Assembly (NCBI GenBank): GCA_963843375.1
Contig: CAWJKT010000010.1
Location: forward strand, 32,001 to 96,000
DNA length: 64,000 bases
Source: an uncultured Pseudomonadota bacterium
GTDB taxonomy: Bacteria; Oederibacteriota; Muellerivitia; Muellerivitales; Muellerivitaceae
Direction of reading: 5' to 3'
This document shows, piece after piece, positions 25,154 to 42,255 of the stretch. Within the stretch, counting starts at the first letter, position 1; each line of letters starts with the position of its first letter. Below the pieces are notes generated by a model. That model made no database searches and was not told the DNA's origin. It worked only from the letters and a program-made list of their open reading frames with translations. A program made the translations under genes and the position numbers.

Positions 25154-25167
25154 GTGATCCTAGTCAT
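25154..25167 (+). promoter_or_regulatory. ATGA-N6-TCAT box (1 mismatch)
   Basis: GTGATCCTAGTCAT; perfect TATAAT at 25189, 21 nt downstream. Confidence 0.7.
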
Positions 25168-25260
25168 ATTTAATAAATGTTTTAGAGGTATAATTTACTC
25201 AAGAAGTGATCTCTAAGGATCCCTCGGGGATTTTGGTCAAATAGAGGGTTGAGGTGCGTT

Positions 25261-25677
25261 ATGAAATTTAAAAAAAACACGCTGTTTTGGGTGGTGATTC
25301 TTTTTCCTTTCCTGGTTTGGACGTTAAAAAGTTCAGTGGTTTTGAGTGCACCATCGCCCATCCTGAGCACCGTGACGGGTTCGGATGTGGTGGCCACCCC
25401 CATTGGCACGACCATCGCCGTTACCCCGGTGGGAACACCTTTGGGAATTTTGGTGGGAACACCCATTCCTTATATCCCCATAGCCGTCAATATCTCCACT
25501 CCTATCCAATCCACCCCCTTGGGAATATCGATTGGCACCCCCGTTGGCCAGCCGGTGGTACCCATGACCCCAATTGGCGTGCCTTTTGGAACTATTACCC
25601 CCAAGCCCTCGGTAACACCTGAAATTACCCCGTTGAATGTAGTGGCGTCTCCGGCACCTGTGGTCACGCCGGAGTAA
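25261..25677 (+). CDS. Small exported Thr-Pro repeat protein
   Basis: GAGGTG RBS; MKFKKNTLFWVVILF signal; repeated TP[IVL]G. Confidence 0.7.
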   Translation: MKFKKNTLFWVVILFPFLVWTLKSSVVLSAPSPILSTVTGSDVVATPIGTTIAVTPVGTPLGILVGTPIPYIPIAVNISTPIQSTPLGISIGTPVGQPVVPMTPIGVPFGTITPKPSVTPEITPLNVVASPAPVVTPE

Positions 25678-33843: not shown

Positions 33844-34578
33844 ATGAAAATCGATCCAGCACAAACGGTGGGGCAAATCGCTGTTGAAAGCAAAGAGGCT
33901 ATCCCCGTTTTCGAAAAATACAACATCAATTATTACAGCGAAGGGAATAGGTCCTTGCGGGACGCCTGTTATCTCGCCGGGGTTCCCTTGGAAGAGATTT
34001 GTCCTGTCTTGGAAAAACTTCGGCACCATCCCCAAGTGTGGTATCGGCAGGAACCGGACTGGTGGAATGAATCCATGGCGGATTTGATCGTCTATATCGT
34101 GGGGGTGCACCACCGTTATACCCGTTCGCAACTGAGCCGTATTGAGGAAATGATGGATGCCCTGACGACGCAAAGGGGGAAGTCGAATTCCGAATTGATT
34201 GCGGCAAAACGGCTTTTCTTGAAACTGGCCGAAGACTTGAGGAACCACATGTTGCAGGAAGAGGAAGTGGTATTCCCATATCTCATTCAGGCTGAAAGGG
34301 CGAAGGAACGAAATGAACCGGTTCCGAGACCATTCACGGGCTACAACAGTTTCACCCATCCCATCCGCGCCATGTTATTTGAACATGGCATGATGGACCG
34401 AGAATGGAGAGATATAGTGAGGTTGACTCATCATTTTGAGCCCCCCCTTTCTCAGCGTAAATTGTTTCGGCCTCTTTACGAGGCAATGAAGGAATTGGAA
34501 AAGGACGACGAAAAACACGTCCATCTGGAGAACAACATCCTGCTTAAAAAAGCCGCCCAAATGGGCCTCTTGGATTAG
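33844..34578 (+). CDS. ric: Repair-of-iron-centres di-iron protein (Ric/YtfE/ScdA family)
   Basis: ScdA_N-like N-terminus; HHRY, HMLQEE.VVFP, MLFEH, HVHLENNIL. Confidence 0.88.
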   Translation: MKIDPAQTVGQIAVESKEAIPVFEKYNINYYSEGNRSLRDACYLAGVPLEEICPVLEKLRHHPQVWYRQEPDWWNESMADLIVYIVGVHHRYTRSQLSRIEEMMDALTTQRGKSNSELIAAKRLFLKLAEDLRNHMLQEEEVVFPYLIQAERAKERNEPVPRPFTGYNSFTHPIRAMLFEHGMMDREWRDIVRLTHHFEPPLSQRKLFRPLYEAMKELEKDDEKHVHLENNILLKKAAQMGLLD

Positions 34579-38149: not shown

Positions 38150-39427
38150 ATTATCTCTCCTTCGTCCCCATCAATCCAACGGCGTCAATCGTTAAGACAA
38201 CGACTCCTGGCTTTTTTGGCCGTCATGGGCCCGGGCCTAATCGTCATGCAGGCCGACACGGAAGCGGGCAGTATCACCACGGCGGCGGTGGCGGGAGCCC
38301 AATATGGCTATTTATTGGTGGGGATGCTTCTCGCTTTGGCGATCCCCCTTTATGTGGTTCAGGAAATGACCGCCCGCCTAGGTTCCGTCACCGGAAAGGG
38401 CCATGCCTATCTCATTCGGAAAAAATATGGAATGGGGTGGGCCTGGGTATCCCTTTCCATTCTGTTTATCTGCAATATCGCCGCCCTGGTTACTGAGTTC
38501 GCAGGGATCATGAGCGCGGCCCGGATCGTCCATGTCCCGCCCTTTGTATCGGTTGCGGTTTCCGCGACTCTCCTTTTATTCGTGGTCATGAGCGGTTCCT
38601 ACCGGAAAGCCGAATATATCGCGCTGGGATTCTGCCTGGCCGATCTTCTTTTTATCCCGGCGGCATTTTTAGCCCATCCGGACTGGGGAGAGGTTACCCA
38701 GGAAGTTTTTTCCGTTCCTACACAAGCTCTGACTCGTGATTTCGTGCTGGTGATCATCGGACTGATCGGGGCGGTCATCATGCCCTGGATGATTTATTAC
38801 CAACAAAGCGCCGTGGTGGACAAGAAGTTGACTGAAAAAGACCTGCTTTTTGAACGATGGGACACAGGCATTGGGGCGGTCGTGACCGAACTGGTCATGG
38901 CTTTCATCGTCATTTCCACTGGGGCTACCCTTTATACCCACCATCTTTCCATCGATGACGCGGCTCAAGCCGCAACCGCCCTCATTCCTTTGGCTGGAAA
39001 ATACGCGGGAACCCTTTTTTCAGTGGGCCTGATCAGCGCGGCTTTCCTGGGGGCTTTTGTAGTGGCGGTTTCCACCGCTTGGGCCTTTGGTGAGACATTC
39101 GAATGGCCCCACAGCCTCAATAATCGCCCTCCCCAGGCTAAAAGATTTTATGCTCTTTATGCGGCGGGGGTGGTTTTAGCGGCGGCGATCGTGCTGATTC
39201 CGAACATTCCCCTAGTGACCATTACGGTCTTGGTGGAGGCGGGGAACGCCCTCTTATTGCCTATCGTTCTGATTTTCCTTTTGCTTTTGACAAATGACAA
39301 AGAATTATTGGGCGAGCATGTCAATAATTGGAAATCCAACCTACTTGCCATTGCCACAGGTGTCGCTATCATTTTATTGGGGCTCCTAACGGTGGTTATG
39401 ACGATTTTTCCGGATTGGAAACCCTGA
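38150..39427 (+). CDS. Nramp-family divalent metal transporter (NRMT-like); start uncertain
   Basis: GPGLIVMQADTEAG, QEMTARLG, MPWMIYYQQS; the frame is open back to the AAAGGA SD at 38141-38146. Confidence 0.88.
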   Translation: MISPSSPSIQRRQSLRQRLLAFLAVMGPGLIVMQADTEAGSITTAAVAGAQYGYLLVGMLLALAIPLYVVQEMTARLGSVTGKGHAYLIRKKYGMGWAWVSLSILFICNIAALVTEFAGIMSAARIVHVPPFVSVAVSATLLLFVVMSGSYRKAEYIALGFCLADLLFIPAAFLAHPDWGEVTQEVFSVPTQALTRDFVLVIIGLIGAVIMPWMIYYQQSAVVDKKLTEKDLLFERWDTGIGAVVTELVMAFIVISTGATLYTHHLSIDDAAQAATALIPLAGKYAGTLFSVGLISAAFLGAFVVAVSTAWAFGETFEWPHSLNNRPPQAKRFYALYAAGVVLAAAIVLIPNIPLVTITVLVEAGNALLLPIVLIFLLLLTNDKELLGEHVNNWKSNLLAIATGVAIILLGLLTVVMTIFPDWKP

Positions 39428-39563
39428 TTCTTTTTTTGAGAAATCCAAATGCATTTGAATCGCTCCATGGATTTTTCTTTCTGAATGTCAGTGGGGAGGT
39501 AAAGCCAGCCGGAAATCTCTCTTTTTTCCCTAATGTGGTTTCCTTTCATCGAAAAGCGCAAAT

Positions 39564-39577
39564 ATGATCCAGATCAT
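39564..39577 (+). promoter_or_regulatory. ATGA-N6-TCAT box
   Basis: ATGATCCAGATCAT; TATAAG 22 nt downstream (39600). Confidence 0.85.
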
Positions 39578-39651
39578 GTTTATTGTCCGATGGAAGTTGT
39601 ATAAGTAAATTTGTAGAAAGTGTTCCAAGGTAAAGCACCCCAAGGGTGTGG

Positions 39652-39766
39652 CGGGGACTGAGGTCCCAAACCGAAAAAGAGCACTGCCGTCGAAAGCTGG
39701 AGGAACTGGTAAGGATTCCGGTTTTAAGCGCCTTATAGGCTGCTACGGGGACTGAGGTCCCAAACC
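39652..39766 (+). repeat. Exact 21-nt direct repeat CGGGGACTGAGGTCCCAAACC, two copies
   Basis: 39652-39672 and 39746-39766. Confidence 0.95.
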
Positions 39767-39986
39767 TTCAAGGAACCCGGCCTGGCGAAGCCAGTGAGTT
39801 ATATCGGAATATTTAAAACGGTTGTCATGCCGTTGTTGTTGAAGCCCGAAGTGGGGCTTTTCAAAGTATTTGTTGGAGGTATGTCGGTACAATCGTCGGA
39901 AAGGTTCACCGGTTGCGTTTCAATGACGCGGGGCAAAGGCCCAAAACTAACAAAGAACCTTGCTGAAGATGTTGCTGATGGTCGTG

Positions 39987-40020
39987 AAAGCCCCGGGACA
40001 CAGGGTCCCGGGGCTTTTTT
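39987..40020 (+). terminator. Rho-independent terminator
   Basis: AAAGCCCCGGGAC-ACAGG-GTCCCGGGGCTTT-TTT. Confidence 0.92.
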
Positions 40021-40069
40021 ATTTGGTGGAAAGGGTTTTTGAGACTTTTTTACTGTTATCGGACTCAAT

Positions 40070-40083
40070 GTGATCTTGGTCAT
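40070..40083 (+). promoter_or_regulatory. ATGA-N6-TCAT box (1 mismatch)
   Basis: GTGATCTTGGTCAT; GAAAAT 22 nt downstream. Confidence 0.75.
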
Positions 40084-40134
40084 GTCGCTCATAAAAAATG
40101 AGAGGGAAAATTAAATTGGGGGAGATGAATAATT

Positions 40135-40914
40135 ATGAAAATAATTCCATCCCAGACCGTTGGTCTTATTGCGGTGAATCTGAAAGAGTCCATCCCGGTA
40201 TTTGAGAAATATAAAATCAATTACTACAATCAGGGAAGCCGCAGCTTGAAAGATGCCTGTTATTTGGCCGGGGTTTCGTTGGAACAGGTTTCCTTGGAAT
40301 TGGAGACTTTGGTTTCAACTTCTGGCGAATGGTACCTCGATAAAAAAGACAGGCGTAACGAGCCCATGGTGGCGGTAATGGATCATAACGTTAAGACCCA
40401 CCATCACTACATTCGTAAACAGTTGGACCGGATTGAAAAAATGCTGGAAACCCTGATGAATCCCACCCGTCCTCCGGTTCCGGTTGTCTCCCAAATCCGC
40501 CCCTTTTTCGATGATATGTCCCGTAATTTAAAAATCCATTTGCGCCGGGAAGAAGAGGTTGTTTTCTCCTATTTGTTGGAGGTGGAAATGTCCATGGAGA
40601 CAGGGAGGACTCTTCCGCTGACCTTCAAGGGGTATAACGCCATCACGCATCCCTTTCGTATGCTTCAGGATGACCATGGGATGATGGATAACGAGTGGAT
40701 GAAAATCGAGGAATTGACCCATGGGTTTACTGCTTCCGACGATGCCGATTCGACTCTCAAAGAACTCTACCAGGCCTTCCGGGAAATGGAAAAGGACAAC
40801 CGCAAACATTTGCATTTGGAAAACAACGTTTTGTTTCATAGGGCCATTCAATTAGGTCTTTTAAGTAATGGAGAAAAAAATGGGAACCACGTCCAAGAAA
40901 CGCCCCATCTTTAA
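40135..40914 (+). CDS. ric: Second Ric/YtfE/ScdA paralog
   Basis: Colinear with 33844; HHHY, HLRREE, DDH, HLHLENN. Confidence 0.85.
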   Translation: MKIIPSQTVGLIAVNLKESIPVFEKYKINYYNQGSRSLKDACYLAGVSLEQVSLELETLVSTSGEWYLDKKDRRNEPMVAVMDHNVKTHHHYIRKQLDRIEKMLETLMNPTRPPVPVVSQIRPFFDDMSRNLKIHLRREEEVVFSYLLEVEMSMETGRTLPLTFKGYNAITHPFRMLQDDHGMMDNEWMKIEELTHGFTASDDADSTLKELYQAFREMEKDNRKHLHLENNVLFHRAIQLGLLSNGEKNGNHVQETPHL

Positions 40915-41587
40915 GAACAGGGAAGAAGCGGCCATGCTTCTGGCTCGGAGGCTGTTGCCTTATCGGGGGTTGAAGCCCCTGGTCTTGGGGGTACCGCGGG
41001 GCGGTGTTCCCATGGCAAAGATCATATCGGAGAAACTTCTGGGGGATTTGGACGTGGTTTTGGTTCATAAGCTTCAGGCTCCGGGAAATCCCGAATATGC
41101 TATCGGAGCCATATCGGAGGGTGGGACACTCTATCGGCCCCCCTATCCTCAACACCAGTGGATTCCAAAAGAATATCTTGACCGAGAAATCAATTGTGAG
41201 CTTCACGCCTTAAAGCAAAGGCGAAAACTTTACACACCCCATCATTTAGCCCAGAAAGCCGCCAACCGGATCGTTATTGTCGTGGATGATGGCATTGCCA
41301 CCGGATCCACCTTGCTTGCGGCTATGGGGGAATTGGATAGCCAAAAACCGGCCAAGGTTGTGGTGGCGGCGGCTGTTGCCCCTCCTGAGGCGGTTGAAAG
41401 GTTAAGAAAAGAAGCGGACGAAGTATTTATTTTGTCTATATGCCCCGACTTTTTGAAAATTAGCGATTTTTTTAAAGATTTTACCGAGGTGCCCGACACT
41501 GAAGTGGTTCGGATATTGGAGAATTCTTCTGCTTCCAAGCCAGGAATATCGAGGGATAACGCCCCTCTCAGAGGGAGGATGCGATGA
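40880..41587 (+). CDS. Phosphoribosyltransferase-like protein
   Basis: FKNREEAA, LGVPRGG, VVDDGIATGST; alternative start 40868. Confidence 0.88.
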   Translation: MGTTSKKRPIFKNREEAAMLLARRLLPYRGLKPLVLGVPRGGVPMAKIISEKLLGDLDVVLVHKLQAPGNPEYAIGAISEGGTLYRPPYPQHQWIPKEYLDREINCELHALKQRRKLYTPHHLAQKAANRIVIVVDDGIATGSTLLAAMGELDSQKPAKVVVAAAVAPPEAVERLRKEADEVFILSICPDFLKISDFFKDFTEVPDTEVVRILENSSASKPGISRDNAPLRGRMR

Positions 41588-42255
41588 GCGAGCGTTACGC
41601 CTGGGAAAAGCCATTTTTCAAAAATCGTAATGAAGCGGCCGAACTTTTGTCCGGAAGGTTGGCCGACCACAAAGGGCAAAATCCCTTGGTGTTGGCCATT
41701 CCTCGTGGTGCGGTGCCGATGGGTCGGATCATTGCGGATGATTTGGGCGGGGAATTGGACATTGTTCTAGTTCATAAGGTTGGTTCGCCCAACAATCCCG
41801 AATTAGCCTTAGGAGCGGTCGGGGAAAACGGTGAATTTTACGAGGCCCCTTTTGCGCGATCCTTGGGTTTTTCAGAAGAAACGCTTCAAAAAGAAATCCA
41901 TATTCAAACCGAAGCCTTAAAACAAAAACGAAAGCTTTATTTGTCTGATCGCCCCCTCTACAACGCGGAAGGACGAGTTGTTATTTTGCTGGATGACGGG
42001 ATTGCCACGGCTTCCACAATAATGGCCGGAATCCGTGACCTGCGTCGGCAAGGGCCCTTGAAGGTTGTGGTGGCCGCGCCTGTGGCCCCTCCCGAGGCGG
42101 TTAATATCATCCGGCAGGAAGCCGATGAGGTTGTGATATTGACCGTCCAAACCGATTTTGCGGTGATAAGTGAATTTTTCGAGGACTTCCGGCAGGTTAG
42201 TGACGAAGAGGTAAAACGGTGTCTTGAAAACACAGCGACGTTCCCTGGAAAATAA
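41584..42255 (+). CDS. Phosphoribosyltransferase-like protein (tandem paralog)
   Basis: FKNRNEAA, LAIPRG, LLDDGIATAST, DFRQVSDEEV. Confidence 0.9.
   Translation: MSERYAWEKPFFKNRNEAAELLSGRLADHKGQNPLVLAIPRGAVPMGRIIADDLGGELDIVLVHKVGSPNNPELALGAVGENGEFYEAPFARSLGFSEETLQKEIHIQTEALKQKRKLYLSDRPLYNAEGRVVILLDDGIATASTIMAGIRDLRRQGPLKVVVAAPVAPPEAVNIIRQEADEVVILTVQTDFAVISEFFEDFRQVSDEEVKRCLENTATFPGK

Follow-up and report, generated by a model that had tools for sequence, protein, structure and literature searches.

When considering a stretch of DNA from an organism that is represented by its genome only, a simple question has to be asked about each long interval between protein genes: does it do anything? 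This question is raised by a segment of some 400 nucleotides (nt) in a 64,000-nt stretch of a genome (G000:C10:32001-96000, hereafter the window) from FCPU426, a candidate phylum of which we know no cultured member. The interval 39612-40020 on the forward strand lies downstream of a putative regulatory box and ends in an intrinsic terminator; it could encode a small protein, serve as the leader of the next gene, or be an RNA gene in its own right. A preliminary description of the locus, made from the letters alone, had favored the last option, namely a large RNA induced by hypoxia or nitric oxide (NO). The data presented below show that the ~400-nt RNA is stand-alone, non-coding and highly structured, and the interval is, very probably, a real, novel and previously uncatalogued structured RNA gene. 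Its layout comprises three homologous modules, each a three-way junction of ~70 nt, with a variable linker before the third of them, and a terminator (Table 1). As to function, we tentatively suggest a trans-acting RNA that serves as a platform for multivalent binding; identity and mechanism taken jointly are assigned a probability of about 0.5.

The 5' end of the predicted RNA follows from the position of the -10 hexamer and the 3' end from the terminator; sequence conservation among the homologues begins at about 39611 and stops at the terminator. Covariance models represent the 5' domain (R1), the 3' domain (R2) and the module (R3); R1 and R3 were used in scanning 99 genomes of the phylum, of which 31, G000 included, belong to the family f1 and 68 to 22 other families. 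Altogether, 12 distinct homologous sequences are available, with a single locus per genome, and R1 (76.9-207.9 bits) and R2 (36.8-116.4 bits) match together in every one of them. Most of the elements listed in the preliminary description, that is, the boxes, TATAAG, the terminator, the hairpins and the 3' stem, are present where it had placed them. In particular, the strong terminator that it had noticed at 39987-40020 corresponds to 39986-40018, where the terminator scan places a stem of 14 pairs and, behind it, a T-run; the terminator hairpin is part of the consensus fold of seven homologues, and a hairpin with a T-run is visible at the end of all 12 homologous sequences. Its impression of a densely paired RNA agrees with the minimum free energy of 39612-40020, which is -159.6 kcal/mol as compared to -132.9 +/- 6.2 kcal/mol for dinucleotide shuffles (z = -4.33), with none of the 100 shuffles reaching the same value.

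The fold is supported by compensatory base changes. In a plain MAFFT alignment of seven sequences, RNAalifold predicts 84 pairs, 24 of them with compensatory changes. In the model-fitted alignment of all 12 sequences, 94.8% of the cells of the 5' domain are paired, against at most 61.7% in slid controls, compensatory changes are found in 22 of the 42 pairs, and none of 500 shuffles is as good; the respective values for the 3' domain are 94.6% paired cells, at most 50.7% in slid controls, 10 compensatory pairs of 28, and no shuffle of 500 as high. Thus, covariation bears out the conserved structure proposed earlier, including the 3' stem AAGGTTC/GAACCTT with its GCGTT/GACGC and GGGC/GCCC hairpins. 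Other helices fared differently. The helix that had been thought to close the 5' domain (39622-31 with 39764-76) is not supported: only 55.8% of its cells are paired, and 251 of 500 shuffles do equally well; the complementarity, which is real in G000, is due to the similar stem sequences that the three modules share. The hairpin CTGGC-GAA-GCCAG at 39782 can form but shows no covariation beyond shuffles; the local pairing at 39782-39794 (86.7% of cells) is in competition with the outer stem of the middle module, for which the support is better. The hairpins at 39817 and 39842 are present here but lie within the linker and are specific to the lineage: the length and sequence of the linker vary among genera, and four of the seven sequences in alignment A1 have mostly gaps there. 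The GGU/ACC junction helices in the first two modules are weak (59% paired, 20 of 500 shuffles as high). A scan for extra long-range helices and pseudoknots returned only pairings between P1 strands of different modules, which arise because the P1 sequences of the modules resemble each other.

The three modules, denoted U1, U2 and U3, follow a common plan: a closing stem P1, mostly GGUUCC paired with GGAACC, encloses a variable hairpin P2 and a G-rich hairpin P3 of 4-5 bp, with NRAG in the P3 loop (UGAG in U1 and U2), an A-rich AAAC(C) junction on the 3' side of P3, and a purine-rich GUMGRAAG ahead of P1. Helix 1, in U1, is 96.3% paired and has compensatory changes in five of its seven pairs; helices 5-7, in U2, are 89.8%, 92.9% and 98.3% paired, with 5, 5 and 2 compensatory pairs, respectively. 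An additional stem (39696-39700 with 39791-39795) encloses U2, and U3 sits within a longer one; in the 3' domain, the outer stem is followed by a conserved internal loop, ACAAUCG opposite AAGAUGUU, around U3. An internal direct repeat (39643-39688 / 39737-39782) is found inside the RNA, and the homology of the modules is also apparent from the cross-matching of the models, with R1 picking up U3 and R2 picking up U1 and U2. R3 yields two to three matches in each of the 10 RNA-bearing genomes, all inside the RNA locus, and none elsewhere in the 99 genomes, where no solitary module precedes any gene. In an unfitted MAFFT alignment of 36 modules, the common three-helix structure, which was supplied by hand since RNAalifold on this alignment gave only P3, is formed in 83.6% of the cells, with compensatory changes in 14 of the 16 pairs and none of 500 shuffles as good.

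Orthologous modules are 60-72% identical and paralogous ones 50-58%, and paralogous modules of the same RNA do not resemble each other more than those taken from different RNAs. Since orthologous modules are closer to each other than paralogous ones, the triplication is older than the RNA-bearing genera. A parallel change was observed in the homologues L027 (G009) and L030 (G013), where P1 of both U1 and U3 has shifted from the GGUUCC/GGAACC to the GGAUCC type; this could reflect gene conversion, a constraint common to both modules, or pairing between modules that has a function. Another reading of the locus is that of a self-contained RNA, the modules of which would assemble mutually or with other copies of the molecule, or which would be catalytic; it would resemble the large orphan RNAs OLE, ROOL, GOLLD and raiA. 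The large size of the RNA, its strongly conserved junctions suggestive of a three-dimensional fold, the similarity of the P1 sequences and the lack of a linked protein gene would all fit such an RNA; yet the P1 strands of one and the same module pair in 99%, 91% and 100% of the cells (U1, U2 and U3), as compared to 61-87% for strands taken across modules, so that pairing within the module is clearly preferred, and we consider the self-contained RNA distinctly unlikely.

Table 1. Features of the RNA locus and its promoter region (window coordinates; strands that pair are joined by "with")
Feature	Position	Strand	Basis or remark
CRP/FNR-type palindromic box ATGATCCAGATCAT	39564..39577	.	Predicted; its centre is at the class II activator position, 41.5 bp upstream of the predicted start
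-10 hexamer TATAAG	39600..39605	+	Sequence; similar hexamer in 11/12 homologues
Whole predicted RNA, ~409 nt	39612..40020	+	Conservation limits; R1 and R2 match together in 12/12 homologues
Module U1	39615..39686	+	P1 39620-39626 with 39678-39684; P2 39636-39640 with 39644-39648; R3 score 75.8 bits
U1 P3, loop UGAG, then AAACCGA	39654-39658 with 39663-39667	+	Helix 3 100% paired
Conserved connector CGUCGAAAG	39687..39712	+	Supplies the 5' strands of the outer stem and inner helix of the middle module
Outer stem of middle module	39696-39700 with 39791-39795	+	Helix 4 100% paired; pair 95/194 CG:7, UA:3, UG:1
Inner helix of middle module	39706, 39708-39710 with 39780-39782, 39784	+	Model-fitted 12-sequence alignment
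Module U2	39709..39780	+	P1 39713-39719 with 39772-39778; P2 39728-39734 with 39737-39743
U2 P3, loop UGAG, then AAACC	39748-39752 with 39757-39761	+	R3 score 61.7 bits
Outer stem 3' strand (39791-39795) and conserved GUGAG	39781..39800	+	12-sequence alignment
Variable linker; here two lineage-specific hairpins (39817-39834, 39842-39859)	39801..39883	+	Differs among genera
3' domain	39884..39978	+	Outer stem 39884-39887 with 39975-39978
Module U3	39898..39964	+	P1 39901-39907 with 39955-39961; junction helix 39911-39914 with 39945-39948
U3 P2 and P3	39915-39920 with 39925-39929; 39931-39934 with 39939-39942	+	R3 score 61.9 bits
Intrinsic terminator: 14-pair G+C-rich stem, then T-run	39986..40018	+	Terminator scan
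Second box GTGATCTTGGTCAT	40070..40083	.	Precedes the RIC gene 40135-40914; outside the RNA

Could the transcript, nevertheless, be the messenger of a small protein? The region contains one open reading frame (ORF) of at least 60 amino acids (aa) on the forward strand, 39794-40042 (82 aa, GTG start), and three shorter ones (30-37 aa), and frames of ~100 codons are open on both strands in several homologues, as would be compatible with translation of the 82-aa ORF or of a shorter one. The variation among the 12 homologues, however, is devoid of three-base periodicity: variable columns are spread evenly over the codon positions (50, 50 and 49 of 65 each in the 5' domain; 28, 28 and 27 in the 3' domain), no reading frame of either strand stays open in more than six of the 12 sequences, and 125 of the 152 gap runs are a single nucleotide long. 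The 82-aa ORF, moreover, starts in the variable linker and passes through the terminator. The earlier judgment that the RNA is not coding is, accordingly, retained, and a messenger function is hardly credible.

Nor does the RNA belong to a catalogued family, in agreement with the preliminary description, which had recognized none. At gathering thresholds, Rfam 15 yields no match anywhere in the window. When the RNA and two divergent homologues were scanned at E values of up to 10, most matches, including every better-scoring one, overlapped the terminator; the few matches on module regions were to eukaryotic and archaeal families (at most 16 bits, E of at least 0.5), and none of them recurs on a module. 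No riboswitch model and, outside the terminator, no Rfam family of small RNAs (sRNAs) matches the RNA in these scans. Two specific candidates were considered and rejected. A housekeeping RNA is ruled out both by the mapping of 6S RNA (RF00013) and RNase P RNA (RF00010) to other contigs in G000, G001 and G018 and by the absence of the RNA from 21 of the 31 family genomes. A link to PyrR sites was suggested by matches at E = 0.31 and 0.52, but these sit on the terminator, and the phosphoribosyltransferase gene pair follows the RNA only in G000 and G001, not in the other genera. The literature searched, which leaves ~1.7 million PubMed Central papers outside it, holds no publication that links FCPU426 with riboswitches or noncoding RNA.

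The next possibility to be weighed is that of a cis-acting leader, with the modules as tandem riboswitch aptamers and the terminator as the expression platform for a downstream gene. The modules do resemble tandem aptamers with a terminator behind them, and in five loci (G000, G001, G021, G075 and L035) the ORF that follows shares the strand of the RNA. These five ORFs, however, represent as many families (RIC, phosphoribosyltransferase, protein kinase, epimerase and thioesterase), and in the remaining seven of the 12 loci the downstream ORF is convergent. In the window, the next gene has a box of its own, and the stretch between the third module and the terminator is poorly conserved. More generally, the ORFs on either side of the 12 loci have no recurrent Pfam family, the neighbors being different in every genus. 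The gene order largely refutes the leader, which we consider very unlikely, and upholds the earlier view of a stand-alone transcript. Among the neighbors, we note two tandem paralogous genes with phosphoribosyltransferase domains at 40868-42255 in the window; the same pair directly follows the RNA in G001 (L021 2062-3194), where the RIC gene is missing.

The distribution of the RNA is narrow and patchy. A blastn search against 40 relatives recovered the region solely in genomes of the same family, and R1 detects the RNA in 10 of the 31 genomes of f1 and in none of the 68 genomes from the 22 other FCPU426 families. Among the family genomes that are at least 90% complete, eight of 17 carry the RNA; within genera, it is present in one of four genomes in g2, one of four in g5, three of four in g10 and one of three in g13. 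A pattern scan for the 5' hairpin in genome contigs found only five loci, and one for the 3' domain in metagenome contigs found three, of which one is identical to that of G004 and two are new. Viral contigs gave no match in the pattern scan, and plasmids gave no blastn match. The RNA is thus rare, and nothing indicates a link to phages or plasmids; we rate it as a new RNA class, confined to one soil and peat family of an uncultured phylum.

Relatives of the RNA are also present in environmental RNA libraries. Contigs from four metatranscriptome runs, which belong to three peat and soil studies, align to 39616-39993 at identities of at least 80%. Two of them bridge U2, the linker and U3 (record 16, 39682-39975; record 18, 39688-39978), and one 112-nt contig is 98% identical, with two differences over 39874-39981. 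No contig from these libraries covers 39400-39615 or 39994-40200; since the flanks of relatives would not align, this bears no evidence on the ends of the RNA. Several contigs have loose ends (at 39887, 39891 and 39908), which are read as more divergent versions of the linker and U3, suggesting that RNA libraries hold more homologues than the genome collections do.

What would switch such a gene on? In seven of the 12 homologues, which represent six genera, 22-23 nt separate the end of a TGA-N6-TCAT box from a -10-like hexamer; the box is thereby centred at -41.5 or -42.5, and the sequence of the 22-23-nt spacer itself is unconserved. The -10-like hexamer, in turn, lies 6-7 nt upstream of the conserved 5' GTMG in 11 of the 12. 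A scan with a consensus promoter did not list the TATAAG promoter because it has no -35 element, as is expected of an activator-dependent promoter. The four sequences of the genus g10 and its metagenome relative (L025, L026, L028 and L034) are boxless and have TAAAAT as the common -10; three of them carry a shorter palindrome-like TGAAT/TCATGA ~40-60 nt upstream of the RNA, near the position of the box, and this arrangement suggests that the regulator of the RNA may have changed in g10.

The box is not peculiar to the RNA. Its core, TGAYNNNNRTCA, occurs 12 times in the window as compared to the 2.47 +/- 1.65 copies expected, and there are 53 copies of ATGAY-N4-RTCAT genome-wide versus 7-24 for spacers of 2, 3, 5, 6 and 7 nt; 23 of the 53 are intergenic by crude ORF calls. 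This enrichment, together with the geometry kept in the seven homologues, substantiates the earlier idea that the box is a regulon element. Boxes directly precede two RIC genes (ScdA_N plus hemerythrin domains), one in the window (40135-40914) and one at C9:111016-111711 (L043), and a third paralogous RIC gene (33844-34578) is flanked by two boxes, which makes three RIC genes in one genome; for the gene at 40135-40914, the match to FeS_repair_RIC has E = 2.8e-37 and stays below the curated cut-off of that family. Further genes behind boxes encode a MacB-type ABC transporter, a fatty-acid desaturase and a GGDEF protein, as well as a cytochrome c, in the latter case via a small upstream ORF. The 12 cores in the window span 25155-53781, are mostly intergenic and look like a regulon island on C10, with an SDR / beta-lactamase-fold pair, an ABC transporter, MacB, RIC, cytochrome c, desaturase and GGDEF genes behind them. 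At 25154-25677, a box is followed by a 21-nt spacer and a perfect TATAAT before a 142-aa ORF (25249-25677) without a Pfam match.

A gene for a CRP/FNR-family regulator, P0001 (G000:C10:101674-102333, L049), is located 5.7 kb past the window and has a box 35 nt before its start, a distance that fits a leaderless mRNA or a mis-set start. P0001 is a generic CRP/FNR-family member that reaches no subfamily cut-off, and its cysteine-rich patch (..GTCCCFGGGQYPC..) is not the N-terminal FNR motif; close orthologues are found in 27 of the 31 family genomes, both RNA-bearing and RNA-lacking. For a comparison with known regulons, we take dnrN to be the same gene as RIC/ytfE. According to Rodionov et al. 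(2005, PMC1274295), dnrN is a core member of NO-responsive regulons, sites of the FNR-like HcpR have the form TTGACnnnnGTCAA, and hemerythrin- and cytochrome c-like genes are found in HcpR regulons. The ATGAY-N4-RTCAT boxes before the two RIC genes and the CRP/FNR gene can be compared with the TGA-N6-TCA-type palindromes upstream of dnrN/RIC-type genes in NO-responsive CRP/FNR-family regulons of the HcpR/DNR/NnrR type (PMC1274295), bearing in mind that the regulator itself falls below the subfamily cut-offs. From the regulon content (RIC, hemerythrin, cytochrome c), read against this study, an NO, redox or oxygen signal for the RNA promoter can reasonably be inferred.

The mode of action can be envisaged as follows. 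Once the cognate CRP/FNR-family regulator is activated, the RNA would be made in quantity; the signal would, probably, be iron centres damaged by NO, by oxygen or by redox stress, a proposal that stems from the RIC genes being part of this regulon. The RNA would then act in trans as a multivalent, in this case trivalent, binding platform, in which three near-identical junction and loop surfaces might each capture one copy of the same partner, be it an RNA-binding protein, a small ligand or an ion, so that the partner would be titrated or scaffolded for as long as the stress lasts. Such a mechanism is a tentative proposal, to which we would give even odds at best. It draws on the observation that each of the three modules has kept the same letters in its loops and junctions, whereas covariation in the stems is free, a pattern that points to a repeated three-dimensional binding surface rather than to a single antisense seed.

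The pattern just described also bears on the possibility of a base-pairing regulatory sRNA, in which one or more unpaired segments, for instance ACAAUCG or CGUCGAAAG, would base-pair to stress-regulon mRNAs and the modules would serve as a scaffold or stabilizer. A stand-alone RNA with a regulon promoter and an intrinsic terminator is what one would expect of such a regulator, and several unpaired stretches are indeed nearly invariant; but the best-conserved unpaired bases are those of the junctions and loops that are repeated across the three modules, and Hfq (PF17209) was found in none of the 31 family genomes by a search to which the control genomes responded. Base pairing as the principal function is, in our view, unlikely. 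The same lack of Hfq and the three-module fold, which is not that of a short seed-bearing sRNA, leave the FnrS-like mechanism considered at the outset unsupported. CsrA (PF02599) is likewise found in none of the 31 genomes, and the partner of the putative platform would thus be neither Hfq nor CsrA. A different version of binding in trans would be a new class of large bacterial RNA, a free-standing "riboswitch without a gene", the three ancient aptamer-like modules of which might each bind the same small molecule or metal ion linked to iron damage by NO or redox stress, or co-assemble into a particle, the ligand being sensed or buffered in trans under CRP/FNR control; this version appears rather doubtful.

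Several observations weigh against the trans-acting platform under stress control, or against the strength of its support. The RNA is absent from 21 of the 31 family genomes, including G003, which is 99% complete and consists of five contigs, and in one genus three of the four species are without it; hence its function has to be dispensable. No protein gene travels with the RNA. The box is missing in five of the 12 homologues (the four of g10 and its metagenome relative, and that of G013), so that control of the RNA by the regulator is not universal, and the stress signal is deduced from the content of the regulon only. The models to which the 12-sequence alignments were fitted had been derived from these very sequences, which favors structure, and the 12 sequences are related, so that the shuffle counts overstate significance; the seven-sequence and 36-module MAFFT alignments are free of the fitting bias. 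Finally, the Logan contigs from RNA libraries may contain DNA, and they do not display strand and ends.

These reservations notwithstanding, the RNA appears to be of general interest. Bacteria have few large RNAs with intricate conserved folds, and all that have been characterized so far gave unexpected biochemistry. The present RNA is tractable: its architecture is clean, and the invariant junction and loop bases of three paralogous junctions point to one repeated binding surface; its promoter logic is readable and would tie it to a regulon with iron-sulfur repair (RIC) genes; and relatives appear in contigs from environmental RNA libraries. With its ~70 nt, the module is of a size that lends itself to in-line probing, ligand screens and structure determination, none of which would require the host in culture.

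How, then, does this RNA compare with known systems? FnrS, an enterobacterial sRNA of ~120 nt, is activated by FNR, depends on Hfq and acts through a seed. Like FnrS, the RNA described here is a stand-alone gene with an intrinsic terminator and a predicted CRP/FNR-family site at the activator position (the box centre at 41.5-42.5 in seven of the 12 homologues); unlike FnrS, it is ~400 nt long, consists of three folded modules, and comes from a family in the 31 genomes of which Hfq was not detected. DrrS, a DosR-regulated mycobacterial sRNA that is not known to have repeated three-way-junction modules, is similar in being a longer structured transcript within a stress regulon of the hypoxia/NO type, whereas the regulator here would be a CRP/FNR-family one, and neither sequence nor structure matches. 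Both FnrS and DrrS had been offered as loose analogies.

The proposed working mode, that is, titration of a protein, would be closer to that of CsrB/RsmZ and 6S RNA, abundant stand-alone RNAs that titrate a protein by means of repeated or mimetic sites. In contrast to CsrB/RsmZ, what is repeated here is a three-way junction of ~70 nt with UGAG/NRAG loops, not a GGA hairpin, and the family lacks a detectable CsrA (0 of 31 genomes); 6S RNA, for its part, maps elsewhere in G000, G001 and G018, and the present RNA lacks the rod shape with a central bubble. Large orphan structured RNAs, such as OLE, ROOL, GOLLD and raiA, all of which are in Rfam, share with it a long and intricate bacterial fold that emerged from comparative analysis at a time when the function was not known; it differs from them in matching no model, in being limited to one family and in having a recognizable regulon promoter. 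Tandem riboswitch aptamers (glycine, glnA and others) reside in the 5' leaders of the genes that they control, and, like the modules described here, they combine two or three homologous units of aptamer size with covarying stems and invariant junction bases; the present RNA is set apart from them by the lack of a conserved downstream gene and of a match to any riboswitch model. Taken together, these comparisons suggest that, in its architecture, the RNA resembles tandem riboswitch aptamers or sponge RNAs, with FnrS and DrrS remaining loose analogies as stand-alone RNAs embedded in a regulon.

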